From Somniosus microcephalus (Eukaryota): a stretch of DNA of 64,000 nucleotides. Below the pieces are notes generated by a model. It searched no databases and had not been told where the DNA came from. It saw nothing but the letters and a program-made list of their open reading frames with translations. The stretch covers positions 180,048,001-180,112,000 of the forward strand of contig CM126207.1 in the NCBI GenBank assembly GCA_052327205.1, read 5' to 3'. The position numbers were made by a program, and so were the translations under genes. Of this stretch, positions 20,531 through 63,313 are shown piece by piece (positions within the stretch are counted from its first letter, which is position 1; each line of letters begins with the position of its first letter).

Positions 20531-20604
20531 CCTTTTACCATTTATTTCTGTCTGCCTTTCACTTTCCTCTATTTCACTACATAGGTTTCTAGCCCCCTGC
20601 CATA

Positions 20605-20791
20605 CTAGTTTAAATGCTCCCGAACTGCTTTATCAAAAATTACCCCGAGAACATCAGTTCCATCTCTGCACAGGTGTAGACCGTCCCTTTTGTATAGGTC
20701 ACACCTACCACAAAACTGGTTCCAATGCCTCAAAAATTTAAAACCCTCCCTCTTACACCACTGCTCAAGCCACGTATTTAGCCTAACTATC
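20605..20791 (-). pseudogene. CR1 ORF1 C-terminal SGNH/GDSL esterase fragment
   Basis: LNTWLEQWCKREGFKFLRHW...LYKRDGLHL lies immediately upstream of ORF2. Confidence 0.8.
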
Positions 20792-22901
20792 CAGTTGTGA
20801 GATAATTCTTGATTTCCACAGTGAGAAGGTACAGAGGAGGAAGGATTTGCCAGACAGAGCATTGGAACTCAGAAGGAATAAGATAGTTCAGAGAATCTGA
20901 ATCAGCGAATCATATGGCACTTTCCTAGTATAAGTAGTATTAATAAAGTAACTATATCAGTGTATTGGTCAGGAGATACTCGAGAGGTCATTTTCTGAGT
21001 TTGCACTTCCGACACTGAGCATCACACGTTGGCAGGACCTATCGGAACACTGAGAGTAGCACGGAAGACAGAGAGTAGCACTCCCTCCCAATTTTCCATT
21101 CACCAGAACTAATCGGCGCCACATCAAATGGGCTGCACCATGGACACACAGTCCCTAACGCCCATATTCCAATACGCATACGCTCTGCACTGGGAGAACA
21201 AACCCCAAAAATGACCCCTTTGACATCTGCTTTGGGATTTCTGGTCTCTCTATCGCCCAAGCTCAGTTCTGCACCTTAGGGTGGCTGGGGTGCTACATCT
21301 CGGAAGACCACCAAGCATGGGTAGGATGCTCAGAGCCCCCCGGCAAATAGCCGAAAACACACTGGTGATCATCACATACTTTACTTAATCTTTTCTTGTT
21401 GGTGACCAGCGAAGCAGTATTTTCATGTTTCTATTTTGTATTTACCATTATTTATTTTGTTGTGATTTGTTGTTTAAAAAATAAATTGGGAAAAGGTTGT
21501 TCAATGCTGGATAAATGCACGGTGAGGTGGCTCAGTTAGACACAGGCCTGCCCACTAACTTATTTATAGTGGGATGGGAAACACGTGGCGAAAGAAAGGT
21601 TTATGGTTTTCACAGAAATAGTGAGCAGCAAAGAACCTCGCCTGCCTCTTTGGTTGCAAACAGTCCCATTGCTGTGTGATTATAAATCTCACTCCTGGCA
21701 GTTCCCAGATGTTGCAGGCGTGCCCAAGCATCAGACCTTTAGTGTAAGTGTAAGTACCAGGAACGAGATGTACTTACACTTACACTGAAGGACTGACACT
21801 GGAGTAAGTACCAGGAATGAGGTATACTTACCCCAGTGTCAATCCTTCAGTGTGAGGGTAAGTCAAGGAATGAGGTGTACTTACCCCAATGTCAGTCCTT
21901 CAGTGTGAGGGTAAGTCAAGGAATGAGGTGTACTTACCCCAGTGTCAGTCCTTCAATGTGAGGGTAAGTCAAGGAATGAGGTGTACTTACCCCAATGTCA
22001 GTCCTTCAGTGTGAGGGTAAGTCAAGGAATGAGGTGTACTTACCCCAATGTCAGTCCTTCAGTGTGAGGGTAAGTCAAGGAATGAGGTGTATGTTGTGTA
22101 TGTAATATGTGTGCTACTTTGAACCTATGGACAGGACTGCACAACTTGTTGGGCGTAGTGATACGCAGTACCACTCCTGGCCATAGGGGTATAAATAGTA
22201 CTGTGGGTACTGATCTCCCCTCAGTTCCCGCCTGTGGGCATGAAGTAAAGACCTACGTATAGTCCCTACCTCCAACCAGTAAAGACCTGTTTTATTGTTA
22301 CTGATTAAGTCTGAGTATTAATTACTTGAACAACTCACAGATTTAACACTGGCGACGAGTCTGATTCGGACCCTGCGGCAGTCACTCCACGGCAGCTTCG
22401 TCCACAGCCAGGACGTTGCAGAGAGGTTTCCACCCTCTCCACCCCACTGGAAGACATCCTGACCTCGGAGCCTCCATCGGCGACCGTCAGCTTCTTCTCC
22501 AGCTTGGTGGTGGGTAAGCCGTTGTCTGAGCCGGGCAGCGACGCGACAGGCAGTCGACCGCGTTGGCCGCACGAACGGGGCTGGGGGAGCTGGAGGAATA
22601 GGGCGCGAGAGCCGCTTCGAGCGGGAGGCGTTTCAACAGAGCGATCGCATCTCCTGATAAGAGCCGAGAGCCGCTTCGCGATCCAGCGATCGCATCCGCT
22701 GATAAGGGCCGCACTCGGGCGATCGCGGCGAAGATAAGGGCCGCACTCGGGGGCTGAAGGGAGACGGCGTTGGGGGACGGGTGAAGACCGCCAAGCGCGG
22801 GAAAACCGCCATTTTGTGGGCAGAGGACGACGGCAAGAGCGGGAAGCCGCCATCTTGGATAGCAGTAAAAAAAAAAAAATCTGAGAAATTGCAAATCTAC
22901 A

Positions 22902-24149
22902 ATGCCTAAACACGGGAATATTAGCACCTTTGATAGTGACCTCGAAGATTGGGCCATATATGTTGAAAGAGTAAAAAATTATTGTAAGGCCAATAAAATT
23001 CGTGACCAAGATAAAGCTCTAACATTATTAAATTTAATGGGTGCGAAGACATACGGGCAATTGAAACACCTGTTATCACCAGATGAACCGGCGGATAAGA
23101 CGTTCGATGAGATTGTTACTGTCCTGAAAGATCATCTGAACCCCACGCCGCTGATGCTAGCGGAACGATTTAAATTTTACGACAGAAGGCAGCTACAGCA
23201 TGAAAGCAATGCTGATTATTTGCTGGAATTGCGTAAATTAGCGAAATATTGCCAGTTTGGAACGGGACTGACAGATGCACTACGAGACAAATTTGTGTGT
23301 GGTTTATTTAAACAGGATACACAAAAGCGACTGCTCGAGGAGAATGAGCTGACGCTTGAGAAGGCGGTCACTATGGCAGCAGCACACGAAGCCGCAGCGA
23401 GAGGCACGGCAGTAATGCAGCTACGGTCACCGGAGCTCAGTGCACACAAATTGGGTGTGAGTTCTGGCAAATGTTATCGTTGTGGAAAGACAACGCATGA
23501 TCAGAACCAGTGTTGGTTTAAAAACCAAGAATGTAGAACTTGTGGTAGGCTTGGACATATAGCTAGAGTATGCAGGTCAGGGAAGAAGACCAGCAACAAG
23601 AAGTCACCGCAAGGAAAATACGCAAAGGTACACAAGGTGACCGAACAGGAGTCCGATTCAGACGCTAGCAGTAATGAACTGGCTAGCTTAAGCTGTAATG
23701 AACTGGCTAGCTTAAGAGTACTCAACGCTGGTAAGGGTGCAGACCTCCAGACAATTTGGGTCACTCTTCAGATAGAAGGAGTCCAAGTAAAACTGGAATT
23801 GGACACTGGATCGGCATTGACGGTCATAAATAAGAAAGATTACGGAAAGTTATTCCAACATATTCCCCTACAGGATACGGGGATTATATTGGAAACATAC
23901 ACGGGGCAAAGAGTGTACCCCATCGGGAAAATAGAGGTTGCAGTGGTCCACAAGGGCGAAGACAGTCAAATAATGGACTTATATGTGATATCTGAAGGAG
24001 GTCCTCCACTACTAGGACGGGAGTGGATTAGGAAAATGAATATGGACTGGCATTTCCTACAAACAATAACGAGTGAGAACTCGGTGAAGATAGTCGGCCC
24101 AGACTCTGGAACGGATGATGGTAAGCCCAACTCAGGTGCAAAAGACTAA
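22902..24149 (+). CDS. gag: Gag-protease of element C (415 aa, open)
   Basis: Close homolog of element B Gag-PR, with two CCHC knuckles, LDTGS and LLGREW. Confidence 0.9.
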   Translation: MPKHGNISTFDSDLEDWAIYVERVKNYCKANKIRDQDKALTLLNLMGAKTYGQLKHLLSPDEPADKTFDEIVTVLKDHLNPTPLMLAERFKFYDRRQLQHESNADYLLELRKLAKYCQFGTGLTDALRDKFVCGLFKQDTQKRLLEENELTLEKAVTMAAAHEAAARGTAVMQLRSPELSAHKLGVSSGKCYRCGKTTHDQNQCWFKNQECRTCGRLGHIARVCRSGKKTSNKKSPQGKYAKVHKVTEQESDSDASSNELASLSCNELASLRVLNAGKGADLQTIWVTLQIEGVQVKLELDTGSALTVINKKDYGKLFQHIPLQDTGIILETYTGQRVYPIGKIEVAVVHKGEDSQIMDLYVISEGGPPLLGREWIRKMNMDWHFLQTITSENSVKIVGPDSGTDDGKPNSGAKD

Positions 24150-25118
24150 GTTTCAGCACAGAATTCCACTGAGCAACAACAACATAGTTTAACTGTGGAT
24201 TCTGAGTCTGGCAAGTCTACTGATGTGCCCATTTCTGAGGGACACCGGGCTCGAACTCAACTCCATTTCAAACTACAACAGCAATTAGAACAAATGCTTC
24301 GCCGTTTTGAGCAAGAGTTGAATGCAACGAAAGAGTTCTTTGATATAGAGTTGGAGAATCTGGAAAGACAACAGAAGCAGCTGATGGAGAAAATGGAGCA
24401 GGAGCACACAAAACGTCTGATGTCAGAGGAGTTAACGGTCAGCCAACTCCTGCATATGCTGAAGGACAGGACTCTGAAATGGGAAAAACTTGAACACGAA
24501 CTTCAATATTCAAACGAAAGGGGTTCGGAGCTCTCAAAGGTTATTGGAAGAGCTGAGGTGGCAACACAGACTGAGATGACTGCAACAGAGCAGCCCTTGG
24601 ATGCCAAAAGTACGCTGACTCACGTCAACGTAGAACAACAGACCGCTGAAACAGCTGCTCCGGTAGAGGGATTGAATAGTCCGATCAATCAATCTCCAAA
24701 AGAAGTTGAAGTAGTAAAATCTCAAATGAGGTCATTAGTAAACGACTTGCTGAAAGCCCAGAAAAAGCTGGATGAAGAGGTACGCATGAAGAAGTCTCTT
24801 CAGGAAAGATGTCTGGACTTGGAACAAAAGCTGGCTAACGCCCAGCTGGGTATGGAGGAAATAGAAGACCCTCTCGCTGGCCTAGATCAGGACGACACCG
24901 AATATTACTATGTCCTGTCCTGCCCAACTTGTAACTTCGACTCCCACCATACAGAAATCATGGAGGAGCACCGAAAGTCTACGGAACATCGGGAGAAGGT
25001 GGCTCTACTACGGAAAAAGGAGGGAGAGAAGGAGGAACTGCGCATGCAGCTGGCAGCTGACAGTGGAGCCCAGAGAGTCTCCAAGAAGCAGAAAAGGAAA
25101 AGTCGAAACAGAAGATGA
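24150..25118 (+). CDS. In-frame continuation after a single TAA: chimeric coiled-coil / Zn-finger cargo protein
   Basis: Same frame as gag. The TAA at 24147 aligns with AAA in element E. Heptad-rich, ending in CPTC...H..S.EH and a basic tail. Confidence 0.8.
24237..24419 (+). other. STK10: Captured STK10/SLK coiled-coil fragment
   Basis: [42 protein letters not shown] versus recalled human STK10 [42 protein letters not shown]. Confidence 0.85.
24423..24830 (+). other. OPTN: Captured optineurin coiled-coil fragment
   Basis: EELTVSQLL...EVATQTE...[37 protein letters not shown] versus recalled human [13 protein letters not shown]...EIETQTE...[37 protein letters not shown]. Confidence 0.82.
24891..25118 (+). 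other. DNAJC21: Captured DNAJC21-like C2H2 zinc finger and basic patch
   Basis: LSCPTC...[18 protein letters not shown]...[10 protein letters not shown] versus recalled human LYCPAC...MKNHEKSKKHREMVALLK...QKLSKKQKKK. Confidence 0.72.
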
Positions 25119-26599
25119 CCCATCTGAACCATTATTACCTCTACCAGATCACACACGTGGTCCCTCCGAACGGAGCCAATTCAGTTCGGAAGTTCAAACT
25201 GTTAAATCCATGGAAGGACTATTGAATGAGTCACTCCAGCAACGTGAACCGACTCCACCACAGAGATTGAATCTGTGAACTGTTTTCCGCAGAGACTGAA
25301 TCTGTGATCTGTTTTGACATGAAGTTATCTATGTATCTATGTTATTCTGTTATGTAAACCTGAAGTTATATATGTATATATGTTATTACGTTATGTTAAA
25401 TGGGGAGATGACTGTAAAGCTAGGAAGGGAGGAATGTTGTGTATGTAATATGTGTGCTACTTTGAACCTATGGACAGGACTGCACTACTTGTTGGGCGTA
25501 GTGATACGCAGTACCACTCCTGGCCATAGGGGTATAAATAGTACTGTGGGTACTGATCTCCCCTCAGTTCCCGCCTGTGGGCATGAAGTAAAGACCTACG
25601 TATAGTCCCTACCTCCAACCAGTAAAGACCTGTTTTATTGTTACTGATTAAGTCTGAGTATTAATTACTTGAACAACTCACAGATTTAACAGTGTACTTA
25701 CCCCAATGTCAGTCCTTCAGTGTGAGGGTAAGTCAAGGAATGAGGTGTACTTACCCCAGTGTCAGTCCTTCAATGTGAGGGTAAGTCAAGGAATGAGGTG
25801 TACTTACCCCAATGTCAGTCCTTCAGTGTGAGGGTAAGTCAAGGAATGAGGTGTACTTACCCCAGTGTCAGTCCTTCAGTGTGAGGGTAAGTCAAGGAAT
25901 GAGGTGTACTTACCCCAATGTCAGTCCTTCAGTGTGAGGGTAAGTCAAGGAATGAGGTATACTTACCCCAATGTCAGTCCTTCAGTGTGAGGGTAAGTCA
26001 AGGAATGAGGTGTACTTACCCCAATGTCAGTCCTTCAGTGTGAGGGTAAGTCAAGGAATGAGGTGTACTTACCCCAATGTCAGTCCTTCAGTGTGAGGGT
26101 AAGTCAAGGAATGAGGTGTACTTACCCCAGTGTCAGTCCTTCAGTGTGAGGGTAAGTCAAGGAATGAGGTGTACTTACCCCAGTGTCAGTCCTTCAGTGT
26201 GAGGGTAAGTCAAGGAATGAGGTGTACTTACCCCAGTGTCAGTCCTTCAGTGTGAGGGTAAGTCAAGGAATGAGGTGTACTTACCCCAATGTCAGTCCTT
26301 CAGTGTGAGGGTAAGTAAACAGAATACATATTAACATACCATCTGACAAATAGAATGTCTACACAATGCCTCACTTCCATCTGCAGTTAGAAAGGCAGAT
26401 CAATATTATCAATTTTCAATTGAATGTAATTAAAATAAATATTCCAATTTTTTTGTTAATTTCAATATATCTCCTGTTTTCCTAACACCAATAAATTACA
26501 ATATAAACAGGAGGAATTCAGTAACACGAGGACAGAACAGATCAATAATGGATCATTAAATATAGCTGGAAATGAATGGCTGACTTACTGGGCCAACCC

Positions 26600-32670: not shown

Positions 32671-35600
32671 CAGGCAATACAATGGTAAGGGGGAACCTGA
32701 AACCAACCACAGTCACAGGCAGTGATGAATGGAATATTTCATCACATTCACCCCTTCTATAGATTTAGTCTGTTCGGGGGTTTGGTAGTCCTCTGCGACC
32801 GACGTGGCTGTTGTGGTGTCGCGGGTGTCGGCTGGGTGTCCCCGGTGGCCTCCTGGGTCTCTGCCGGGGGTGCCGCCAGGGTTGTTGAAGGGGTAGTTGG
32901 TGGGGGTGCCGTTGGTCGATTTTCTTCCGGGGGTGATGAAAGAGTAGTGGGTGGGTAAGAGTTGCTGTGGTCGTTGTTGCTGCTATTGCCGTGGTTGTTG
33001 TCGTTACCGGCTGGGGCGACGTCTTTTATTGACACGGTGTCCTCCCTTCCGTCGGCGTGCCGGACATACGCGTATTGGGGGTTGGCGTGGAGTAGGTGCA
33101 CTGGCTCCACGAGAGGGTCCGTCTTATGGCCCCTCACATGCCTTCGCACGAATACCGGACCCGGGGTGGAGAGCCATGACGGCATGGATACGCCTGAGGT
33201 GGATTTCCGGGGGAAGCTAAACATTCGTTCATGAGGCGTGGCATTAGTGGCAGTACACAATAGCGACCGTATCGAATGGAGCACATCTGAGAGGACTTCC
33301 TACCAGCGGGAGATAGGGAGGCCCTTGGTCCTTAGAGCTAGAGTGACTGCTTTCCATACTGTCCCGTTCTCTCGCTCCACTTGACCGTTACCCCGGGGGT
33401 TGTAGCTGGTGGTACGGCTCGTGGCGATACCCCTGGACAGCATGTACTGGCGTAGCTCTTCACTCATGAAGGACGCCCCCCTATCCGTGTGGATGTAGCT
33501 CGGCATACCGAACAGGCAGAACAGGCTGTTGAGGCATTTATTGACCGTGGCGCTGGTCATGTCTGGGCAGGGGAAGGCGAATGGGAACCGGGAGTATTCG
33601 TCCACAATGTTCAGGAAGTAAACATTGCGGTCGACGGACGGGAGGGGGCCCTTGAAATCTAAGCTGAGCCGCTCAAAGGGCCGTGTAGCTTTGATTAAGT
33701 GGGCTCTATCAGGGTGGTAGAACCGAGGCTTACACTCAGCGCAAGTGCGGCAGTTCCTGGTCAGAGACCGAACTTCCTCAATCGAGTAGGGTAAGTTGCG
33801 GGACTTTATGAAGTGGAACAGCTGCGTGACCCCTGGGTGGCAGAGGTCGTTGTGGAGGGTCTGTAGCCGATCCCCGGTGGCGCTGGCACACATCCCTCGT
33901 GAGAGGGCATCTGGGGATTCGTTAAGGGCCCCTGGCCAGTAAATGATGTCATACTCGAAGGTGGAGAGCTCGATCCGCCACCTAAGAATCTTATCATTTT
34001 TAATCTTCCCCCTCTGTTTATTATTGAACATAAATGCTACCGACCGCTGGTCGGTAAGTAGGGTGAAGCGTTTGCCGGCTAGGTAGTGGCGCCAGTGGCG
34101 CACTGCCTCCATGATGGCTTGGGCCTCCTTTTCCACGGAGGAGTGTCTGATCTCGGGCCCTTGGAGGGCCCTCGAGAAGAAAGCTACGGGCCGCCCCGCC
34201 TGGTTGAGGGTGGCCGCCAAGGCGAAGTCAGACGCATCACTTTCCACTTGAAATGGAGTGTTCTCGTCCACTGCCTGTAGCGTGGCCCGCTCAACATCCT
34301 GCTTAATGCTTTTGAAGGCGGTGTGGGCCTCAGCAGAGAGCGGAAAAGAGGATGCTTTCAAGAGGGGGCGGGCTTTGTCGGAGTAGTTGGGGACCCATTG
34401 GGAATAATAAGAAAATAACCCCAGGCACCTTTTCAGGGCTTTGGGAGTGTTGGGCAGGGGCAGCTCCCGTAGGGGGCGCAATCGGTCGGGGTCTGGTCCG
34501 ATTTCCCCATTCTCCACCACGCTGCCTAGTATGCAGAGGCGCGTGGTGTTGAAAACGCACTTGTCCTCGTTGTAGGTGAGGTTGAGTTTTTGTGCGGTTT
34601 TCAGGAACCTCTCGAGGTTCGAGTCGTGATCCTGCTGGTTGTGACCGCAGATGGTGACGTTGTCGAGGTAGGGGAAGGTTGCCTGCAAGTGGTGGTCATC
34701 GACCATGCGATCCATCTCCCTCTGGAAGACCGAGACCCCATTCGTCACCCCAAAGGGGACTCTGAGGAATTGGTAGAGGCGTCCGTTCGCCTCGAAGGCG
34801 GTGTACGGGCGGTCCTCTGGTCTGATAGGGAGCTGGTGGTACGCTGACTTGAGGTCGATGGTGGAGAACACCCGGTATTGGGCGATTTGGTTCACCATTT
34901 CTGATATGCGGGGTAGCGGGTAGGCGTCTAGTTGGGTGTACCTGTTGATCGTTTGGCTATAGTCGATCACCATCCGTTTCTTCTCGCTACCCCTTACCAC
35001 CACCACTTGGGCGCGCCACGGGCTATTGCTGCATTCAATAATGCGCTCTTTCAGGAGCCTGTCTACCTCGGTTGCGATAAACCGCCTGTCCTCCCAGCTG
35101 TACCTCCTGCTTTTGGTCGCTATTGGCCGGCAGTTAGGGGTAAGGTTCGCGAATAGCGAAGGCGGCTTTACCTTCAGGGTAGCCAGGCCGCACACTGTGA
35201 GGGGCGGCTGGGACCCACCGTACTTGAGCGTGATGCTTTGGTGGTTGCACTGGAAATCCAGGCCCAAGATCACGCTCGCGCATAGATTCTTCATGATTAA
35301 TACTTTAAAATTATCGTATACAGTCCCGTTAACGGACAATTGTACCGTGCAGTAACCCAGAATGGTCGATGTCTGGGTTTTATCAGCCATAGAGATGGTA
35401 CCCCGAGTAGGGACCACCTTTAGGGAGAGTTGTCGTGCCAGTTCCGGGTGGATAAAACTCTCCGTGCTTCCACTGTCAATTAAACATTTAACCCCGCACC
35501 CGTTTACCTCGATGTCCACCATTGATTTGGATAGCGGGTGGGGCCTGGTCTGGTCCACTGTGACCGATGCCACTGTAGGGCCCTGATCGAGACAAGATGG

Positions 35601-36870
35601 TGTCCGCGCTGTCTGCTCACAAGATGGCAGACCCCACGAGGTCGGGCAAGATGGCGTCCAAGATGGCCACTCCCACGGCGCACACGCGGCGGTGGCGGGT
35701 TTTGGTTTTCCAGCGGGGTTCCCTCTGCACACCTTCCCAAAGTGCCCCTTCTTACCGCACTTAAAGCAGGTGGTGCCTTTCGCCGGGCACAGGTTTCTGG
35801 TGTGCTTTGGCTGCCCGCAGAAGTAGCAGTTGGGTCCCCGACGCGTCGCGGCTGTCGTAGGGCTTCTGGGGGGAGAGCGGGGCCCCAACGGTGTCGGGCT
35901 GCCGGGCGGGGAAGATGCCTTCCAAGATGGCGGCGCCCTTGGTGCACACGTGGCAGCGTGGACGGCGCGGGCTGAAGAGTAGGCGTCCGAGTTTCTCTGG
36001 GCCACATCCAGGGATCGCGCGGTGTCCGCAGCCTGTTTCAGGTCCAATCCCGTTTTTTCCAGCAGTCTTTGCCGGATGTAAGTGGAGCTGAGGCCTGTGA
36101 TAAAGGCATCGCGAACAAGCTCGTCGGTGTACACTGCGGCTTTTACATCTCGGCACTTGCAGTCTTTGCCAAGCATTTTCAGGGTGCCTAGGAACTCCTC
36201 CACCGATTCCCCAGGTCGCTGTGCGCGAGTGGCGAGCAGATGCCTAGCATACACCTCATTCGTAGGCTGCTGGTAATGCGCCTTTAAGATGTCACAGGCG
36301 GCCAGGTACGTGTCGGCGTCTTGGATGAGGGGGTAAACCCGGTGGCTTACCCAATTCCGCAGAATTCCGAGTTTCATACTCGCAGCGTCCGTAGCGTCTT
36401 TGACGGCTGCGGAATTGTCCAGGAAGAATTCCATACACATAAACCAGTGTCCGAAGCATGCTGATGCGTCCGGAGCATGCTGATCCAAATCCAAACGTTC
36501 GGGTTTCAGGAGTTGATCCATTGTGTTGAAAAATAAGTTAATACAATTGATGTGCCTCAATAATCCCGAGACTCGATGTCAGCGAAACAAAACAAGGCTT
36601 TTATTAACTTAGAAGATAACACGCAGTGGAGAGAGGTATCTTCCCTGGAGGTCTGCAGTACTGGCTGTGAGGCCAGACTGAGCTGGCTTACATAGAGGCC
36701 AGGTATGGGCGGAGCCCTACACAGAACACATTCCATACATTCCAATACACAATACAATGGTGAGGAGAAACCTGAAACAAACCAACCACAGTCACAGGCA
36801 ATACAATGGTAAGGGGGAACCTGAAACCAACCACAGTCACAGGCAGTGATGAATGGAATATTTCATCACA
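32671..36870 (-). mobile_element. Ty3/Gypsy element D (different lineage, YLDN RT), 3' LTR truncated
   Basis: 5' LTR at about 36870-36548 (TGTGATG...CACATCA). Only 76 bp of the 3' LTR remain (32746-32671). PPT GAAGGGGTGAA. Confidence 0.9.
32757..36521 (-). pseudogene. Single gag-pol ORF of element D with one nonsense codon at 33300
   Basis: Start MDQLLKPERL, two CCHC knuckles, IDSGS, YLDN, ESDAS, HTDRG. ORFs 33300-36560 and 32757-33284 share a frame. Confidence 0.92.
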
Positions 36871-45395: not shown

Positions 45396-48300
45396 GAAAA
45401 TTGCAGACCTGGATTATGTCCCCTCTCGACCTTTTTTTCTCCAATCAAAACAAGTTCCATTCAGTGAGTCTTTTCCATAACATAAGAGCCCCAAGTCCCA
45501 AAATTATCCTGGTCCCTCCTTTTGAAAGTGCCCAAATTGCACATAAAATTATTTTTCAACATGGGTAGAGATGATTTGGCCCCACAAACCTTATAAAATT
45601 GAGGAATGAAATTAGTGAAACTGTAAATGACATTTTTTCATGAGTTTATTAAATTCAGGAGAGATTCCAGGGAAAAGGAAAGTGGCTAACATAAATCCAT
45701 TATTGGACCTGTCAAGTCTTATTCACGTGCAGTAAGATGCACTTATTCAGGTTTAACCTATTTTGCTGTATTTCACGCCAAATAGTAAACAGAGCTCCAG
45801 CTGTTTAAATAGGCTTGTGATCTCCCTTACTAATTTTGATGATAAATTATATATCCATGAAACTGACAACTGCGCATTTTTCATGGGCCAAGAGGCAGAC
45901 TTGGAAAATCTAGACTCTAGTAAATATAACAGCAGTTGTGGCGAACTTTCAATCAAATTTTGAGAGGTTTGGTGGGTGAACACTTGGAAAAGCGGAATTT
46001 ATTGAAGGACAGGATTTGGAAAGGGTGACCATGTTTAACTAACATGCTGGATTTTTTTTTTAAAAAGATGTTACTAATATGGGGGCATGGAGAAATGCAC
46101 CTGATGTTATATCTGATACCAGCTGATCTTCTGCGGCATCGGCTCCTGTGGCACAGGTAGCCTGTAATCTAGAGCATGGCTGTGATGGTTAGCCACGGAT
46201 GTGGCCTGCCCCCTTAAGGTCACTGTTTATGTATTGGGATGTGGTCTAAATAGGTCAATTATGGGTGAATTGTTGTTCAAATTTTCTCCAGACTGCACAG
46301 ATCCTTTTCTTGAGCAGAAGCCAGGTTATCTGATACTCAGACAAAACAGCAGGAAATAACTTGCTTTCTTTCACTTTCTTTGTAATTGTTTTTTTAAGAT
46401 TGCTGAGATGCGATTTTTATGATGTTTCATAGAAATATTACACCTGAAACGTGACGTAGGAACAGGAGTAGGCCCTCGAGCCTGTTCCGCCATTCAATTG
46501 GATCATGGCTGCTCTGTACCTCAACTCCATTTACCCACCTTCGCTCCATATCCCTTGACACCCTTACCTAACAAAAATCTATCAATCTGTTTTGAGAGTT
46601 CCAATTGACCCAGCTTCGACAGCATTTCGGAGCAGAGAATTCCAGATTTCTATTAGCCTTTGTGTGAAAAAGTGTTTCCTGATTTCCCTCCTAAATGGCC
46701 GAGCTCTAAATTGAAGATTATGTCCCCTTGTTCTTGATTCCCCCAACAGAGGAAATAGTTTCTCCGTATCTGTAGTGTATGTACCCGTCTACCTTTAAGA
46801 GAACTATTGTATGTAACCGTTCATCTTTAAGAGAACTACTTTAGGTGTGGCACTACTTGTTTGGCTTCTGTATACTGTAATACCGACGGTGACCACACCG
46901 GTATATAAGTGTTGTGGCATGATTCCTTGGGCAGATTCGCCCTGACCTTCGAATAGTAAAGACCTGTTTGTTTGTTATTCCTGAAGCCTGTGTCGTTATT
47001 AACTGTACAACCCACAGACTTTACAGTGGCGACGAGTCCGATCGTACCCTGCGGCAAGACTACCAAAGCAACTAAAGAGCGTCGAAGAGAGGCAACCGCC
47101 CTCGTCGTTCTGCTGGAAGAAAACATGAAGCTGCAGCAATAGAAAGGAGGAAGACTTTAGCAACAAAAGCTTCCATCAGCAACAGGCACTGACTACCCTT
47201 CTACCACGGTGCGGAGTGAGCCGATCAGCAGGAAACAAGGCGGCCGCGGAGACTGTGAGTAGGGGAAAGTGTAAAGAATATCCGGAGGATAAGGGCTGTG
47301 CACTCGACCACGGTCGAGGGGGAGCGGAGCCGGTCAGAAAGTCGGGTCCAACGGCGTCGTGAGACAGCCGGACTGCGATCGGCGGGAAAAAGCCGGGCAG
47401 CGACCGAAGCCACGAAGCGCTGAGACCGGGAGCAGGCGCGGGAAGAGAGAAACTCAGCCGCAGCCGGGGAGGGAAGCACCGGACTGCGTGAGGGCTGGGA
47501 GGCGAACGGGAACAGAGCGTGTGGGAGAGGCAGAGCCGACCAAAGGAGGCTGCGCGAGAGCCAGTCCAGCGGCTGAACTGTCCTCCACCAACGGGGTACC
47601 CAGCGCCGGTAGAGCCGAGTGTGCGGGAGAGAGACAGAGCCGAGCAAGGGGAGAGAGACTGCGCGAGAGCCAGTCCAGCGGCTGAACTGTCCTCCACCAA
47701 CGGGGTACCCAGCGCCGGTAGAACCGAACGTGCGGGAGAGAGAAAGACAGAGCCAAGTAAGGGGAGCTGTGCGAGAGCCAGCCCAGCGGCTGAACCTGTC
47801 CGTTGTGGGGAAAGCGTACCCCTTCCACCAGGGAAGAAACGCGGGAAGCCGCCATTAGGCGGCGAAGACAACAGAAGCGGGAAACCGCCATTGAAGTGGG
47901 TGGGGAGAGAAGGAAAGAGCGGGAAACCGCCATTTTCGCGGGAAAAGCCGCCATCTTAGGGAAAAAAAAAGAAAAAAATTGTGTTGTACCCAAGGAAAGG
48001 AAGATGCCTAAGCGGGGGGACATCAACGATTTTAATTCTGAGATAGAAGACTGGGCCACGTACATGGAACGTATTGAGATACATTGTAAGGCTAACAAAA
48101 TAGCTAAGGATGAAAAAGCTTTAACCTTACTTAACATGATGGGTGCGAAAACATTCGGGTTGTTGAAGCATCTTCTCTCACCAGCTAAACCGGCGGATCA
48201 GACTTTCGATGATATTGTAGCAGTGCTGAAGGATCACTTGAACCCCACACCGTTGATACTGGCTGAACGATCCAAATTCTATGCAAGAACGCAGAAGACG

Positions 48301-49385
48301 AAAGCAACACGGAATACTTGGTCGAACTGCGTAGGCTAGCGGAACACTGCCAGTTCGGAGGGAATCTGACAGAGGCACTGCGAGACAAGTTCGTATGTGG
48401 ATTGTCCAAAGAAGGGACGCAAAAGCGACTACTGGAAGAGAACGACCTCACACTAGACAGGGCTGTCCTTATAGCTGCATCGCACGAAGCCGCAGCGAAA
48501 GGAACGGCGGAAATGCAGCTAAAGGCGGCGGCACTCGGGGTGGACCAAATTACCTCAAGTACAACAAAATGCTATCGTTGTGGGAAGACAACACACGACC
48601 AGAATCAATGCTGGGTTAAGAACCAAGAATGTAGGAAATGTGGCAAACTGGGTCACATCGCTAAGGTATGCCGGTCAGGGAAGAAGACCAACAACCAAAG
48701 GAAGCCACCACAAGAAAAGTACAACAAGGTACACAAGGTGGCTGAGAAGAGTTCAGACGAACAGAATACAGACTCAGACCCAAACAGCCAGGAGCTGGGT
48801 AGTCTGAGAATTCACAATGTGAGTAAGGAAGCTGACCTACAAACTATCTGGGTCATACTAAAAATAGCTGGAGTCCAAGTAAGAATGGAGTTGGACACTG
48901 GATCAGCTCTATCAGTCATAAATCGAAGGGACTACCACCGGCTATTCTCTCACATACCCTTAAGAAATACCAAGTTCGTATTGCAGACATACACGGGGCA
49001 TAAGGTATACCCCATGGGGAAGATAAGAGTCAAGGTGAGAGATAGGGGTAAAGAACACCCAAGAATGAACTTGTACGTATTATCTGAGGGAGGACCACCA
49101 CTTCTAGGACGAGAGTGGATCAAGAAAATAGACATGGAATGGCACTATCTAAAAGCCATAATGAGTGAGGACTCGGTGCAAGCTATCAGCTCAGATTCTG
49201 AAACGGATGACGATAAGACCAACTCAAATATGGAAGACAAGGCTAAAATGAACTTGCCGACTATGGTGGAGAAAACGAAGACATGCATAAAGGCTTATGC
49301 CACCGAGAAGAATAAAGCTTCAGAGCAGAACTCCAGTTTGACAGAGAATTCTGAGCCTGTTCAAGTTAAGGACTTATCCACGACG

Positions 49386-49532
49386 GAAGAACACCGAACT
49401 CGGACTCAAACTTATTTCAAAGTACGACAACAATTAGAACAGTTGAGTTACCGTCTCGTACAAGAGATGAAAACAATGGAAAAGTTCTGGGACACCGAAT
49501 GGGAGAACCTGGAAAGACAGCAGAGGCAGCTA
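49386..49532 (+). other. STK10: Captured STK10/SLK fragment (diverged homolog of 24237-24385)
   Basis: EEHRTRTQ...QQLEQ...KFWDTEWENLERQQRQ. Confidence 0.78.
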
Positions 49533-49601
49533 GCTCAAGCAAAGAGCGACCATAGAGCCATCGTGACCAATTACCGATCACATCTCCCTTATGATGTTCA
49601 G
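49527..49601 (+). other. ANKRD24: Captured C-terminal motif of the ANKRD24/RAI14/UACA family
   Basis: QLAQAKSDHRAIVTNYRSHLPYDVQ versus recalled human ANKRD24 [25 protein letters not shown]. Confidence 0.62.
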
Positions 49602-49634
49602 GAGTTAGAATATTTGCATGATCTAGAGATACAG

Positions 49635-50105
49635 CATAAAGGCAAACCACGCTACACTGAGGATTTTGTTCTGCAATTGGAGACGGAGCTAGTGCAAGCA
49701 AGGTTAAGAGAAGCTGAATCGCAGTGTGCACTTAAAGATATGCAGAAAAAAATCTTGGACATGGAAAAGAGAAACGCTTCTTTACCTGATGTGAATAATG
49801 TGGCCATGTTGCAAGAGGAGCTTATAGGGGCGAAACTGAAAGAAGCTAAGCAAAGGATGTTGGAACTTGAAACACAGAACCAAATCAGCAGTAACCAGCT
49901 ATGTCGAGCAGAGAAGGAGTGCTATGGTCTACATGAGAAGGTGCAATATCTCTCAGCCCAGAATAAGGGACTACTCACTCAGTTAAATGAAAGTAATCGG
50001 AAAATGGCTGAGATAGACTGCAAGAATAAAGAAGATTTGATGGCAGTGAGACTTCGAGAGGCAGATAGCATAGCAGCCTTGGCTGAACACCAACAGGAAA
50101 TTGCG
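49635..50105 (+). other. EVI5: Captured EVI5 coiled-coil fragment with an in-frame internal deletion
   Basis: EDFVLQLETELVQARLREAESQCALKDMQ, EKVQYLSAQNKGLLTQL and MAVRLREADSIAA are near-identical to recalled human EVI5. Confidence 0.9.
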
Positions 50106-50729
50106 AAAGAAGCAAATGAAGAGGAATCTTCAGGAAGCCAGGATGTTATTCCAGTTCTTCTCTACGACTCCTTACAAGCAGAGTGTGAGAAGTTGAAAGA
50201 ACAGTATGAACAGGCCCAGGCTACAATTCTGGAGGGGGTTAACTCGGCAACCTCCGAAAAGCTAGTTTCAGTAGAAGCATATGAACAACTAAAGGTTGAA
50301 CATGAGCAAGAAGTCCAAAGGCTGCAGGAAATTCTTGATGAGCTCAAGGCCAAGACAGACTCATCGGTAGAAGTTCCATCCATAGATGAGAAATTAGAGG
50401 GGAAAGACATGGCAGAACATGAAAGACAAGATGTCCAAGAACTCATAAAAATATTGAAGGAAACCCAAGACAAATATGAGGCGGCAATGTCCAAGGTTCA
50501 ACAACTTGAAGAACAGATTCAACTGGGAATCCTTTCAGTGGAAGAAAAGGAAACTGTAAGAAACACAGAGACTGTAAGAATGGTCCCTGAACATGAGCTA
50601 GAGAGCATCAGGGCGCAACTTTTCCGAGCGCTGAAAGCCAAAGTACAAGAGGAACAGAAGGTGGAAGCATTGGAGGAAAAGGTGGATGAAATGGAGAAGA
50701 CTCTGATCCACAGTGTTCCCGTGGAAGAG
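50106..50729 (+). other. ANKRD24: Captured central coiled-coil of the ANKRD24/RAI14/UACA family
   Basis: DVIPVLLYDSLQAE versus recalled ANKRD24 EVIPLALYDSLRAE. ETQDKYEAAM...QIQLGILS resembles the RAI14-family motif ETQ.KYEEAM...QMKLGLVS. Confidence 0.68.
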
Positions 50730-51100
50730 TTAACGGTCAGCCAACTCCTTCATATGCTGAGGGAAGAGACTCTGCAATGGGAACAATCTGAACACGAGCT
50801 TCAATCTTCAACGGGAAGGAGTTCGGAGCTCTCAAAAGTTTGGGAAATAGCTGAGGTTGCAAAACAGACTTTACTGGGATGCCAAAAGTATGCTGAATCG
50901 CGTCTATGTGAACAACAGAATGTTGAAACAGCTGCTCCAGTAGAAGGATTGAATAGCCCGATCAATCAATCCCTGAGGGAAGGGGAAGTGTTGAAATCAC
51001 AAATGAGGTAATTAGTGAAGGATTTGCAGGAAACCCAGGAAGAGCGGGATGAAGATGAATGCATGAAGAAGTCTTTTCAAGAAAGATGTCTAGGGAAGGA
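50724..51100 (+). other. OPTN: Captured optineurin fragment
   Basis: [15 protein letters not shown]...MKKSFQERC, homologous to 24423-24830. Confidence 0.78.
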
Positions 51101-51200
51101 ACCACAGTCAGCTAACGTCCAGATGGGTAAGGAGGAAGTAGAAGGCCCTCTCGCTGGCCTAACTCAGGACGAACCCGAATATTACCATGACCTGTTGAGT

Positions 51201-51386
51201 GACACTGAATATTACGAGGATGTGGTCTGCCCAGTTTGTGATGAAAACTCCCAAAGTGCCGAAATCAGGATGAAGCACTTAAAGTCGAAGGAACATAGAG
51301 AGTTGGTGGCGCTACAGCTGGCAGCTGATAAGGGAGCCCCGAGAGTCTCCAAAAAGCAGAAAAGAAAAAGAAGAAGCAGAAGATGA
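51201..51386 (+). other. DNAJC21: Captured DNAJC21-like zinc finger and basic tail
   Basis: YEDVVCPVCD...HLKSKEHRELVAL...[11 protein letters not shown]. Confidence 0.7.
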
Positions 51387-53898
51387 TAACTATCGCAAAT
51401 ATTATCACTTCTACCAGATCATGCGTGGACCCTACGAAAGGAGTTAAATCAGTTGGGAAGTAGGAAAATATCAAGGCAACCCAGTTGTTGTAAAAGTCAG
51501 CACTGCTGGTTCAGCAGGACGAAAATTCAAGCTGTTACGTCAAGAAAAGGATATGGAGGAGTCACGCTAGCAATGTGAACCATCTACACCAAAGAGATGT
51601 TGTTCGGACCGAGTCAAGATCAGAGACTGAATCTGTGAACTGTTCCCGCAGAGACTGAACCTGTGAACTGTTTCCCACCGAGACTATGTCTGTAAATTGT
51701 TTTATATGAAGTTGAAGATATGTTATGTTTAATGGGGACTCTGTATGTAATAAGCTAAAAAGGGAGGATTGTAGTGTATGTACCCGTCTACCTTTAAGAG
51801 AACTATTGTATGTAACCGTTCATCTTTAAGAGAACTACTTTAGGTGTGGCACTACTTGTTTGGCTTCTGTATACTGTAATACCGACGGTGACCACACCGG
51901 TATATAAGTGTTGTGGCATGATTCCTTGGGCAGATTCGCCCTGACCTTCGAATAGTAAAGACCTGTTTGTTTGTTATTCCTGAAGTCTGTGTCGTTATTA
52001 ACTGTACAACCCACAGACTTTACAGTATCTCCTCTATCGAATCCTTTTAACATTAGCACCTCAATCAGATCGTCCCTCAATCTTCTAAAGTGATGAAATA
52101 ACGTGTGATCTCTCAAGTATGACAGATGAGCTGAGCACAAGATTCTTTATAAACGGGTACCTCTGGCCAGTCTGAAACGGACGTGAATTTCTGCAATTCA
52201 AGTGGTTAGTACAGCCTACAGTTACATGTAACCCAATGTCCAGTCTCTAAAAAAAATCCCAGATCGAAAAAAATTAGAGTGAGGTATGAATTATCAGTTT
52301 CTCTGTAGCATGGATATGGCACAGAAAATAGGGGAAATCTAAAGACTTCAGATTAGCTGTATAAGAACATAAGAAATAGGAGCAGGAGTAGGCCATTTGG
52401 CCCTTCGAGGCTGCTCCGCCATTCACTAAGATCATGGCTGATCTTCTACCTCATTTCCACTTTCCTGCACTATCCCCATATCCCTTGATTCCCTTAATAT
52501 AGGATCATAGAAAGTTACAGCACGGAAGGAGGCCATTTCGGCCCATCATGTCTGCGCCAGTCAACAAAGAGCTATCCAGCCTAATCCCACTTCCCAGCTT
52601 TTGGTCCGTAGCCCTGCAGGTTAGAGCATCCCAAGTACTTTTTAAATGTGGTTAGGGTTCCTGCCTCTACCACCCTGTCAAGCAGTGAGTTCCAGACCCC
52701 CGCAACCCTCTGGGTGAAGACATTTCCCCTCAAATCCCCTCTAAACCTTCCCCCAATTACTTTAAATCTGTGCCCCCTGGTTTTTGACCCCTCTGCTAAG
52801 GGAAATAGGTCCTTTCTATCCACTTTATCTATGCCCCTCATAATTTTATACACCTCAATAAGGTCTCCCCTCAGCCTCCTCTGTTCCAAGGAAAACAGAC
52901 CCAGCCTATCCAGTCTTCCTCATAGCTAAGATTCTCTACTCCCGGCAACATCCTTGTAAATCTCCTCTGTACCCTCTCTAGTGCAATCACATCCTTCCTG
53001 TAATGTGGTGACCAGAACTGCACGCAGTACTCTAGCTGAGGCCTAACTAGTGTTTTGTACATTTGAAGCATAACCCCCCCTGCTCTTGTATTCTATGCCA
53101 CGGCTAATAAAGGCAAGCATTCCGTATGCCTTTTTAACCACCTTATCTACTTGGCCTGGACATGCACTCCAAAACCCTTTGTTCCTCTACACTACTCAGT
53201 GTCCTACTATTTAATGTGCATTCCCTTTCCTTGTTAGCCCTCCCCAAATGCATTACCTCACACTTCTCCGGATTGAATTCTATTTGCCACTGTTCTGCCC
53301 ACCTGACCAATTTATTGACATCTTCCCGCAGTCTACAGCTTCCTTCTTCAGTATCAAACACACAGCCGATTTTAGTATCTGCAAACTTCTTAATCATACC
53401 CCTATATTCAAGTCAAGATCGTTGATATATACCACAAAAAGCAAGAGACCTAGAACTGAGCCCTGCAGAACCCCACTGGAAACAGCCTTTCAGTCACAAA
53501 AACACCTATCAACCATTACCCTCTGCTTCCTGTCTCCGAGCCAGTTTTGAATCCAACTTGACATTTTGCCCTGGATCCCATGGGCTTTTAACTTCGTAAC
53601 CAGTCTGCCATGTGGAACCTTATTAAAAGCCTTGATAAAGTCCATATACACTACATCAAATTCACTACCCTCATCTACCCTCCTTGTTACCTCCTCAAAA
53701 AATTCAATCAAGTTTGTCAGACACGACCTTCCCTTAACAAATCCGTGCTGACTATCCTTGATTAATCAGTGTTTTTCTAAATGAAGATTTATCCTGTCCT
53801 TCTTTCCAATAATTTTCCCACCACCGAGGTTAGGCTGACTGGCCTGTAATTACTCAGTTTATCCTTTTCTCCCTTTTTAAACAAGGGTACCACATTAG

Positions 53899-56122
53899 TG
53901 TTGTGTATGTACCTTTAAGAGAATAACTGGTCTCAGACTGCAGTACCGGCAGTGACCACCCCTGTATAAAAGGCGCTAGAGAGCCTCGGTTGTTTAGATT
54001 CGTTATGGACTTCCACCAGTAAACATCTCTTTGTTTTCACTCCTGCTAGTCCGTGTCTAAATCATTCACGGACTTAACACTGGTGACGAGTAAAGAAACG
54101 AACTTACCTGCAACTCAGCAGCAGCTCCGACGACGTTGTTGAAGGTCGGAGCCAGAAGAAAGAAAAAAAAAAGAGGCCATTGAAACTCGAGAAACGGGCA
54201 TTGACCGTCAATCATCGGGTTCAAGGCTCTGCAGGAGCGACTTTCCAGAGCCAGGCTGGGTTCCTCGGTCCGTGGTTTCCCAGCTAATCGGGCTGGTGGC
54301 AGGTAGTGCTCTGATCCTTCCTGGGTTGCGGCGGGCTGAGGCTCGATCGGGTGGCCTTTCAACGGGGCCGGGCAGCGAGTCGGGAAGCAAGGAGAGAGAG
54401 AGGGTGGAGCACACAGGGCGCGGCCGGTGTTTCGAAGCTGGGCAGCGTTCGGACCTCAGAAGAGGGCGGGAAGTGTCCCAGAGGGTCCGCTCCACAACGG
54501 GAAAATAATAAAAGAAAAAGAATACGCGCAAGAAACCGTGGAAAGCAGCGCTAACAACAGCGGGGAAGAAGACAAAGCGCGGGAGGCGCCATTTTGTTAA
54601 ATCGGAGAAGAAGGCAAAGCGCGGGAGGTGCCATTTTAGATTTGCAAGATGCCGAAGACTGGCTGTATCACTGCTTTTGATAATACATTAGAGGACTGGA
54701 CCACGTATGTGGAAAGAGAAGTAATTCCACCTAAGTTGATGGATAGAGTGCTCAATGAGCTCCATGAGGGTCATCTGGGTGGGGTAAAAATGAAGAGCTT
54801 AGCCAGAGCGTTTGTGTGTTGGCCGGGAATCGATAGAGAAATCGAAGAGATGACCAAGAGCTGTGCAGGATGCCAGAAGGTCCAAAACGCCCCACCACAA
54901 GCTCTTCTGCATCCATGGGAGTGGCCCTCATCTCCATGGCAAAGGGTGCACATTGATTTTGCTGGTCCCTTCATGGACTCGATGTTTTTAATTGCGGTGG
55001 ATGCACATTCAAAGTGGCCAGAGGTAATAAAAATGTCCTCAACCACCACGGAAAAAACTATCACAGTTTTACGAACCATATTCGCCAGGAATGGGCTGCC
55101 TGAACAGATTTGCTCTGACAATGGACCACAGTTTGTGTCTGAAGAGTTCCGGAGGTTCTTAAAGAACAATGGTGTTAAGCATTACACATCTGCCCCATAT
55201 CATCCAGCCACTAATGGATTGGCCGAGAGGTTTGTCCAAACATTCAAGAAGGCTATCAAGGCAATGTGTAATGAAGATATACCCCTACAACATAAGGTGG
55301 ACAACTTCTTGTTTGCCTACCGGAATGCGACACATGCGGTTACCAACCAAACTCCAGCCATGATGTTCTTCAATCGAAGACTACGATGCCGCTTGGATTT
55401 GGTTAAGCCAAACGTCCGAAGAGATGTGGAGAACAGGCAGTTTCAGAATATGAATGAAAGGCCGACCAGGAGTTTTAAGATAGGTCAACCAGTTTTGGCC
55501 CAGGACTACCGCACTGAGAAATGGCAGCCAGGAACGATTTGTACACGACAAGGACCTCTCATGTATACCGTGGACGTTGGGGCGAGCATTGTAAGATGCC
55601 ATGTTGACCAGATTCTAGAGTCACTGGAAAACGTCAACTCCACACCACGATCTGATACACCTGGTAATGAAATCGACGTTCCAATTGCAGCTACCGCAGA
55701 ACCGGTAATATTGGAAGCAGATGAACCAAACAACGACATTGATTCCGACTCAACATTGCCAGAAGAACCTGTTACCCCAAAGAGGCGTTATCCAGACAGA
55801 ATCAGGAAGCCTCCTCAAAGACTGAACTTATAATTGCTTAAACTTAACCACTGTATCTAGTAACAGTAATTGTGATTGTAATTCATTATCAGTTAGTTGT
55901 TAAATGAATGTTATGTACTGTTTATCTAAAAGGGGAGGAATTGTTGTGTATGTACCTTTAAGAGAATAACTGGTCTCAGACTGCAGTACCGGCAGTGACC
56001 ACCCCTGTATAAAAGGCGCTAGAGAGCCTCGGTTGTTTAGATTCGTTATGGACTTCCACCAGTAAACATCTCTTTGTTTTCACTCCTGCTAGTCCGTGTC
56101 TAAATCATTCACGGACTTAACA
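53899..56122 (+). mobile_element. Internally deleted Gypsy element F (integrase only)
   Basis: 181-bp LTRs at 53899-54079 and 55942-56122, identical by eye. TSD ATTAG, PBS TGGTGACGAG, PPT AAAAGGGGAGGAA. Confidence 0.96.
54649..55833 (+). CDS. Intact integrase fused in frame to the first 23 aa of Gag (394 aa)
   Basis: MPKTGCITAFDNTLEDWTTYVER joins EVIPPKL...HEGH...CAGC, HIDFAGP, SDNGPQF, NGLAER. No stops. Confidence 0.9.
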   Translation: MPKTGCITAFDNTLEDWTTYVEREVIPPKLMDRVLNELHEGHLGGVKMKSLARAFVCWPGIDREIEEMTKSCAGCQKVQNAPPQALLHPWEWPSSPWQRVHIDFAGPFMDSMFLIAVDAHSKWPEVIKMSSTTTEKTITVLRTIFARNGLPEQICSDNGPQFVSEEFRRFLKNNGVKHYTSAPYHPATNGLAERFVQTFKKAIKAMCNEDIPLQHKVDNFLFAYRNATHAVTNQTPAMMFFNRRLRCRLDLVKPNVRRDVENRQFQNMNERPTRSFKIGQPVLAQDYRTEKWQPGTICTRQGPLMYTVDVGASIVRCHVDQILESLENVNSTPRSDTPGNEIDVPIAATAEPVILEADEPNNDIDSDSTLPEEPVTPKRRYPDRIRKPPQRLNL

Positions 56123-61453: not shown

Positions 61454-62649
61454 ATTATATTCCATTTGCCATGTTCTCGCCCACTCACTTAGCCTGTCTA
61501 TATTCCCTTGAAGCCTCCTTGCATCCTTCTCACAACTTACATTCCCACCCAGCTTTGTATCATCAGGAAATTTGGATATATTACATTTGGTCCCCTCATC
61601 TAGTACATTTAAATAGAGCAGAGATTGTCCTTAAAATTCCATGGGGGATTCATCCAGTCTGCCGTAACTCTGAGTACTTGAAATACCTGTGAATTTTGGC
61701 CTCTTTCCAGTTTCTTCAGGGTGTTCCATTGAAGACCCTCCTCCAGGTTTATTGGCGCACCCCTCTGTTTGCGTGCCCCACAGCCGTAGCAAGATGATAA
61801 TGAGGTGAGAGGGCCAGGAAGCCCCTCCTGCCCCACTAACATTCTGACCTTTGACTTGCACCTACTGTAGTCGCAGGTCCTGTTACAGCAATCTTGGGAA
61901 ACACCATAAATCCAGGCAGGGTCTACTTTCTGTTGTTGGGGTGGCGGGGGCGGAGGGGAAGGGGAAGGAGACCTGGTGCAATTAGGCTCCACCTCATTTC
62001 CTCCTTGCTGAGTTTTTTCCAGGCACAACAAAGAGGAAAATCTACAAAGTTTTTGTCATTCTTAAGTTAAGGATAGATTGTGCTGCCAATGTAAAATGGC
62101 AAATCTTCAATGACGTGTATATACAAGCGTTTGCACTTCACATGCATTCAAAGGGTATGTGAAACATGTGATCTGGTATATGTACCAGATGTGCAAGATT
62201 TGAATGAAAGTCCAGCCTTTTCATTAGAATATATGCATTTTAATTAAGAGCCAAAAAAGTGATCGAACAGCACTAGGCATACAGGTAAGTTCAGTGCTCC
62301 CAGCGTTGAGCTGTGCTTGAATGGAGCATGAGTCAGAGATAGGGTTACACCACTTCCTCCCTAACCTGTGCTCCCTGAGACTTAAACAATTTGCTTGTGA
62401 GCAAGGACCCAAAGATGAGAGTATGTGTTGAATGGAACAGTGAAGGTATTTACAATCTAAGAGACAATACAGCGTTGAGAATATACAAGATACGGAGAAG
62501 AAAATCGGGGTGGTGTAAAACGGGCTGCCGATTGGCTATGGGCACGTTTTACGCTCCTGGTGTTGACCAATTTCACCCCCAAAATCTTCAACATGAGGGT
62601 AGATTTTCAAGTTGCCACACGGGCGTAAAACTGGCATTACAGATTGACC

Positions 62650-63313
62650 GCACGTCATAGAAACTGCCCGCACATCACAGAGACACCACCACTGCACGTC
62701 ATAGAAACTGCCGCACGTCACAGAGACCCCCGAACATCACAGAGACACCACCAGCCGAACATCACAGAGACCTCCGCACGTCATAGAAACTGCCCGCATG
62801 TCAGAGACCCCGCACATCACAGAGACCCTCTGAACATCACAGAGACCCCCACACATCATCGAGACAGCCCACACGCCACCGAGACACCCCTGAACATCAC
62901 AGAGACCCCCCCACGAACGTCACTGAGACCCCGCACCCCCCGCACGTCACATAGACCGCACCCCCCGCAAATGTCACACAGACCCCCCCACCCCCCCACG
63001 AACGTCACACAGAACCCCCAACCCCCACGAATGTCACACAGCAGCCCCACCCCCACGAACATCACACAAACCCCCCCCACCCCCTGCACGTCACACAGAC
63101 CCCCCACCCCCTGCACGTCACACAGACCCCCCACCCCCTGCACGTCACACAGACCCCCCCACCCCCTGCACGTCACACAGACCCCCCCACCCCCTGCACG
63201 TCACACAGACCCCCCCACCCCCTGCACGTCACACAGACCGCATCCTCCCCGAACGTCACACAGACCGCACCCTCCCCGAACGTCACACAGACCGCACCCT
63301 CCCCGAACGTCAC
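62650..63313. repeat. C-rich minisatellite, unit about 22-26 bp
   Basis: Repeats of CACGTCACACAGACCCCCCACCCCCTG and variants. Confidence 0.92.

Follow-up and report, generated by a model that had tools for sequence, protein, structure and literature searches.

Element E, a non-autonomous LTR element of Somniosus microcephalus, lacks pol and carries pieces of host genes, among them a cassette in which parts of ANKRD24 and EVI5 stand out of native order. In the reading preferred here, to which we give a probability of roughly 0.78, host RNA copied at reverse transcription replaced the pol of E, and at least two of the templates of the cassette were back-spliced circular RNAs (circRNAs). At both permuted joins a downstream exon runs to its very end, CAG, and is followed in phase 0 by an upstream exon from its very first base.

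Elements of the window

The window, which is the whole stretch of 64,000 nucleotides that was analysed (assembly GCA_052327205.1, contig CM126207.1), is built of nested LTR elements and CR1-type LINEs. Five related Gypsy-type elements (A, B, C, E, and F) have TG..CA LTRs, a PBS, a PPT, and 5-bp TSDs (Table 1). In F, the start of gag continues in frame into integrase at an AGAG common to both (about 54715-54718), which gives an open ORF of 397 codons. Element C sits within a 53-bp tandem array (21804-22091 and 25692-26316; 96-98% matches), and the purine-rich 5′ leader of E holds a 109-bp tandem repeat at 47543-47801. On the minus strand, the window also contains an unrelated Gypsy element (32757-36578), rich in GC and with a gag-pol ORF of 1092 codons; elsewhere it has a long open CR1-type ORF (17663-20629) and, near its end, a C-rich minisatellite of 19-27 bp (62648-63313).

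E is without an RT, RNase H, or integrase core and retains its LTRs, PBS, PPT, and TSD. Its zinc-knuckle gag and aspartic protease are akin to those of the full-length elements A and B, which, with the TG..CA LTRs and the TSD, places it among the non-autonomous Ty3/Gypsy elements. With one mismatch between the two LTRs of E and about one difference between those of C, both elements were inserted recently. Internally, C and E share only about 71% identity. Both elements are broken, E by a frameshift and a stop and C by a stop. Domesticated Gypsy genes of the PNMA/PEG10 kind are fixed, intact, and LTR-less, unlike these elements with their near-identical LTRs, TSDs, and broken copies. Pieces of host RNA take the place of parts of the element ORF between both LTRs, as in LTR-mediated chimeric retrocopies. 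A single copy of E is known here.

Table 1. Positions of the elements, the host-derived pieces, and their joins in the window.
Feature	Position	Strand	Remarks
Element A	3911-9107		Full-length Gypsy-type
Element B	9504-14825		Full-length Gypsy-type
Element C	22092-25691	+	Cargo carrier without cassette; comparator; TSD GTGTA; stop at 24147-24149
Element E	46771-52024	+	Non-autonomous Gypsy/Ty3-type; LTRs 46771-47025 and 51770-52024; PBS, PPT; TSD GTATC
Element F	53899-56122		Deletion derivative, A-like, identical LTRs
gag (two zinc knuckles) and aspartic protease	48004..49151	+	Compared with C, E has a frameshift at 48294/48295
STK10 cargo in E, donor 400-483 followed directly by 621-669 (PKK coiled coil)	49164..49532	+	Ends in QL common with ANKRD24
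Left outer join QL	49527..49532	+	Inside an STK10 exon; ANKRD24 border 1058/1059 lies 1-2 codons further downstream
ANKRD24 1058-1080	49533..49601	+	Last codon of one exon and the whole 22-codon penultimate coding exon
Junction 1, ANKRD24 exon end 1080 to exon start 492	49599..49604 (49601/49602)	+	Isoform-derived exon ends
ANKRD24 492-496 and two bases of the next codon	49602..49618	+	EVI5 insert interrupts here
EVI5 638-642 (DLEIQ)	49619..49634	+	End of downstream exon
Junction 2, EVI5 exon end 642 to exon start 417	49632..49637 (49634/49635)	+	Isoform-derived exon ends
EVI5 417-484 and 549-637	49635..50105	+	Stops one residue short of the insert's starting residue
ANKRD24 498-705	50106..50729	+	Picks up at the point of interruption; ends in EE common with OPTN
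Right outer join EE	50724-50729		Mid-exon; ANKRD24/OPTN
OPTN cargo, donor 231-384	50724..51140	+	Stop at 51009-51011
Zinc-finger-like/basic tail, then degraded match to the 3′ STK10 piece of C	51141..51461	+	

Limits and composition of the cassette

C and E align on both sides of the cassette (C 24186-24382 with E 49335-49531, and C 24426-25193 with E 50724-51461). The stretch private to E (49533-50723) is 1191 nt or 397 codons long, in frame, and stop-free; its counterpart in C is only 42 nt (24384-24425). The cassette that an earlier note on this DNA had described is real: E departs after CAGCT (49527-49531, QL) and resumes at GAA GAG (50724-50729, EE), with 397 codons between. The span that it gave, 49521-50735, does hold the cassette, with limits that take in 12 nt of common flank on each side.

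The donors had also been named correctly. The best matches are to shark proteins termed “ankycorbin/ANKRD24-like”, EVI5, OPTN, and STK10, and C contains the Pfam PKK domain. Among the matches listed, sharks and rays rank first for the cargo, and the ANKRD24-like shark proteins reach 78% identity (E 1e-82). The next relatives of the ankyrin donor, in chimaera, coelacanth, and tetrapods, bear the name ANKRD24. The cassette is intronless and, at 81-87% identity to its donors, has diverged from all of them.

As the note had observed, native order is broken, with the C-terminal motif of ANKRD24 (donor 1058-1080) ahead of its central part (492-705; donor residues follow the Heptranchias numbering). 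Beyond that first reading, EVI5 is also permuted and is nested inside ANKRD24. The full order is ANKRD24 1058-1080, ANKRD24 492-496, a hybrid codon, EVI5 638-642, 417-484, and 549-637, and ANKRD24 498-705. These joins were placed from exact motif contexts, since local blastp against coiled coils gave many spurious long alignments.

Sequence searches of the PDB with the cargo of E and of C gave no matches. Among the matches listed in a search of 50%-representative proteins, none had the score of the full chimera; the best was a named ANKRD24 at 228 bits, and the remaining rows, mostly unnamed, were left unused. No chimera occurs among the 120 best listed of 2536 (ANKRD24/EVI5) and 240 (OPTN/STK10) matches.

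The out-of-order joins and exon ends

Exon ends were located from isoform breakpoints in named orthologues, 117 for ANKRD24 and 102 for EVI5. The counts are restricted to named records, with the same peaks as in earlier counts, and the borders rest on predicted proteins of other species, some of them surely mis-annotated. In ANKRD24, 10/117 records change or begin at 491/492 and 6/117 at 1080/1081 (read by eye). A breakpoint scan peaks at 492 (8), 1058 (15), 1080 (7), and 1081 (4) over a noisy background of mostly 1-7. Some isoforms have the Val read-through typical of GT donors, or skip the 22-codon exon 1059-1080 exactly, and the coding sequence of the cassette runs unbroken over the border 1058/1059.

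In EVI5, the residues ahead of HKC (417) fall into four unrelated classes (40, 27, 26, and 7 of the 102 records; 2 are without the motif). After LE[IM]Q (642), 10 records diverge at once, 87 are canonical, and 5 are without the motif. A blind breakpoint scan peaks at 416/417 (111 pairs) and at 642/643 (47 and 32 pairs). An alternative origin of HDLEIQ, as a decayed copy of the colinear exon ADRLIQ, was rejected, with a likelihood ratio of 7e3-5e5 in favour of the downstream exon.

Two joins of exon end to exon start are thus non-colinear, as in the class of circRNA-derived retrocopies. All ANKRD24 residues of the cassette fall in 492-1080 and all EVI5 residues in 417-642, so that neither donor contributes sequence from beyond its proposed circle, and both sets of pieces are free of introns and poly(A). 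No native protein contains the permuted joins (0/102 EVI5 and 0/117 ANKRD24 records). Backward joins in EVI5 that stay in frame and share two residues number 283, of which one connects two known exon ends. Generous chance bounds, on the assumption of 10 and 12 exon ends that all fall at Gln, are 0.12 and 0.028, or 0.003 jointly. On the best reading of these borders, the permuted joins would be back-splice junctions of ANKRD24 and EVI5. At each join, moreover, the two exon ends share residues in register (IQ for the EVI5 isoforms that have an 11-residue exon, Q for ANKRD24), so that an RT jump there would leave the same letters. A human circEVI5 is 339 nt long in passages of PMC13414913, which do not equate it with the 417-642 circle; no literature on circANKRD24, circRAI14, or circUACA was found.

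Geometry of the EVI5 insert

The EVI5 insert corresponds to a single complete turn of a circle of 226 codons, consisting of 638-642 followed by 417-637 with one internal deletion. Its insertion into ANKRD24 neither removed nor repeated a residue, and the probability that a random exit would fall within one codon of the entry is 0.013. The deletion removes 64 codons in frame at 49838/49839, between similar A.L[RK]E motifs and off the isoform breakpoints. Measured from the insertion point, the ANKRD24 junction lies 17 nt upstream and the EVI5 junction 16 nt downstream.

The ANKRD24/EVI5 joins have no in-register shared residue (computed as 0 on the left; A/K on the right, read from the alignment). 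The end codons CAT and GCG would fit a cut after the second base of Gln497 in ANKRD24 and of Ala637 in EVI5, given CAG and GCT in the host. A homologous crossover at a TTGC common to ANKRD24 and EVI5 is disfavoured, since its one-base offset would shift the frame.

Outer joins and the older cargo

The 14-residue spacer of C at 24384-24425 continues STK10 through “RL” and then OPTN from “RL”, and is the original STK10/OPTN join. At this join and at the outer joins QL and EE, two residues are common to both donors, with a chance of 0.019 per join; such sharing occurs at 3/6 of the non-splice joins (P 1.4e-4). The outer joins lie off the isoform breakpoints of STK10 and of OPTN, the OPTN scan comprising only 24 records. 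The OPTN piece of E has deletions of 4, 16, and 1 nt at 50870-50910 that shift and then restore the frame.

STK10 is permuted as well. Residues 400-483 and 621-684 follow the protease (C 24072-24428), 327-390 come last in C (25111-25236), and 391-399 are missing. The pieces fall inside the isoform-defined borders 291 and 709, and the last one is spliced over the 335/336 border and runs into the integrase tail of the element. STK10 may therefore represent a third circle within 291-709, its junction overwritten by OPTN and the tail, a candidate in which our confidence is low.

The join of the tail to STK10 in C, at the stop of the ORF, is out of frame, whereas the mechanism in the earlier note would favour in-frame joins. 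Nor is all of the cargo coiled coil: STK10 400-483 and 327-390 resemble a Ser/acidic linker, and the lysine-rich tail (C 24864-25115, E 51141-51386) has a weak zinc-finger match. The tail gave a single, non-significant match in a PDB sequence search and only zinc-finger leads below 0.9 in an Atlas search; it may have a DNAJC21-like origin.

Age, putative selection, and probable exchange of modules

The cassette is younger than its flanks. Among columns invariant in 5-6 shark donors per gene, E has changed 21/235 (9%) in the cassette compared to 34/109 (31%) in the STK10 and OPTN flanks (Fisher p 5e-7). E is the derived state, since it has lost the original STK10/OPTN join that C retains. Growth of the cargo, which the earlier note had proposed, is thereby supported.

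The cargo shared by C and E has a dN/dS of 0.40 (95% CI 0.23-0.66), compared to 0.15 for gag-protease. By segment it ranges over 0.10-0.88, with three segments at 0.68-0.88, and simulations of stop-free stretches are not significant for individual segments (P 0.07-0.13). The overall value and the compensated frameshift in OPTN speak for selection on the cargo; the broken state of both copies and the unremarkable stop-free stretches speak against it. The cargo is most likely a tolerated coiled-coil stuffer that keeps the gag-protease mRNA open and translatable, a view that we hold by a modest preference. Neutral baggage is a weaker candidate, and a specific host-modulating protein is slightly weaker again.

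Between C and E, dS is about 1.4 in gag-protease and about 0.4-0.5 in the shared cargo, and synonymous sites differ at 125/195 and 48/152, respectively (p 1e-9). The threefold higher synonymous divergence, approximately, applies to gag-protease at 48300-49151 in E and 23202-24059 in C. Element B is the nearest relative both of the gag-protease of C (dS 0.53) and of the LTR of E (82%). The far greater divergence of gag-protease and these affinities of B suggest that the cargo has been carried by more than one backbone, through module swapping.

Proposed mechanism and alternatives

In a C-like ancestor, RT working in particles would have switched from the element RNA, at EE in OPTN, to codon 705 of an ANKRD24 circle of the exons spanning 492-1080. 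It would then have read across the back-splice junction and switched back at QL in STK10, with 42 nt replaced. An EVI5 circle (417-642, 678 nt) would have been copied into the ANKRD24 piece, over exactly one turn. This would most simply involve forced jumps between RNA ends, with the element RNA broken and the circle nicked once; alternatively, the circle may have been cut by RNase H at its entry point. Switching would be homology-guided for ANKRD24 and end-forced for EVI5, and the nesting suggests that the ANKRD24 step came before the EVI5 step. The 64-codon deletion in EVI5 may have arisen at its short internal similarity, and selection on the gag-protease-cargo frame would have retained in-frame products.

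The earlier note had explained the scrambled order by repeated RT template switching from one co-packaged mRNA to another, at coiled-coil codons rich in CAG/CTG/GAG, which would favour in-frame joins. Homology is indeed found at the outer joins, at the amino-acid level, but is absent in register from the ANKRD24/EVI5 joins, and CAG, CTG, and GAG together make up only 50 of the 397 cassette codons. The comparison of junctions with splice sites that the note had proposed gives a divided answer, in that the two out-of-order joins fall exactly on exon ends, which speaks against linear switching as their cause, and the outer joins QL and EE are mid-exon in STK10 and OPTN. An account in which every join is a switch between linear mRNAs, with backward jumps that happened to land on CAG-ending exon ends, is therefore unlikely. 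It draws on the two-residue sharing at QL, EE, and RL (3/6 joins), on the IQ/IQ and Q/Q identity at the permuted joins, and on the in-frame deletion of F at a common AGAG in the same window, and an RNase H cut at the entry point of a linear mRNA could also yield one turn. It would nevertheless have to strike four exon ends exactly (the joint bound of 0.003), lacks in-register homology at the ANKRD24/EVI5 joins, and meets a third permuted donor in STK10. Tandem exon-block duplication in host genes, as well as trans-splicing or exon repetition, yields the same exon-end joins in linear RNAs, which could then have been captured in the same way. This is less probable still, as the joins are absent from all 102 EVI5 and 117 ANKRD24 records, two or three independent rare events would be needed, and the exactly one turn would be left unexplained.

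Somewhat better placed than either of these, at a probability that is still low, is a route with circles as templates in which the EVI5 turn entered outside the particle, as cDNA at a DNA double-strand break of the integrated element. It is a one-step variant of the circRNA capture proposed above and overlaps it. The insertion is blunt, loss-free, and homology-free, as suits this route; end joining often leaves small losses, however, and the other captures are switch-type replacements with homology. Capture of reverse-transcribed spliced mRNA at breaks, described in PMC4516963, gives it a precedent. Finally, that the direction is reversed, with C a deletion of E, or that E is mis-assembled, is highly improbable. 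Only a single copy each of C and E is seen, which counts in its favour, but the C spacer has STK10 and OPTN residues missing from E, the cassette is less diverged than its flanks and is intronless at 81-87% identity to its donors, and E has near-identical LTRs and a TSD.

Relation to known systems

Acutely transforming retroviruses, such as avian E26 with its gag-myb-ets fusion, are replication-defective and carry gag-fused, multi-gene cargo acquired via template switching, like E on the proposed mechanism. In contrast to E26, E is without env and of Gypsy type.

Maize Bs1 is likewise an LTR element, with pieces of three host genes in one chimeric ORF; it is a plant element, and back-spliced pieces go unmentioned in the relevant passages of PMC13317346 and PMC5131818. 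LTR-mediated retroposition in metazoans, as described in passages of Tan et al. 2016 (PMC5131818), involves switching at microsimilarities and several parental genes. It has in common with E the replacement of internal ORFs by partial host RNAs, several parents, non-autonomous re-mobilisation, and perhaps microsimilarity, the counterpart in E being the two shared residues at each outer join. It differs in that the words “circular” and “circRNA” are absent from the text of that paper, while the templates of E are permuted at splice sites; here, moreover, the cargo has a dN/dS below 1 between two diverged lineages.

Mouse circRFWD2 pseudogenes carry MMERVK10C LTR sequence, by a mechanism that Dong et al. 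2016 (PMC4897178) called mysterious, cautioning that RT can itself produce non-colinear joins. They share with E a non-colinear join of exon end to exon start, the association with an LTR, and the lack of poly(A). They contain one circle per locus, whereas E would contain two nested circles with their junctions, and has a third permuted donor. Unlike them, E is a recent Gypsy insertion with its cargo in frame with gag-protease and with readable switch points.

circRNA-derived copies and LTR chimeric retrocopies have thus been known separately, and nested circRNA capture in a Gypsy element appears to be new, as far as a literature search can indicate. No report of such capture, or of this shark family, was found in literature whose coverage stops short of most subscription papers and of bioRxiv supplements.

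Biological significance

Reverse transcription of circRNAs into genomes is a route that PMC4897178 left open. In E, entry and exit points are readable within an LTR element, as homology-guided switches for one circle and as an exact single turn for the other, which offers a concrete mechanism with sharp predictions for circRNA capture. On this reading, E would preserve in DNA evidence of the circRNAs present in the germline of a cartilaginous fish, and back-splicing would feed exon shuffling into an open reading frame.

Three of the four identified donors are permuted, and this raises a broader possibility, which we hold only tentatively and consider rather doubtful: that the Gypsy lineage serially and preferentially samples germline circRNAs, copies them end to end, keeps them in frame under selection, and trades cargo between backbones. 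If true, coiled-coil cargo may aid particle assembly or trafficking, and the family would be a working machine for circRNA-driven exon shuffling and, at the same time, a fossil archive of circRNAs from ancient germlines.
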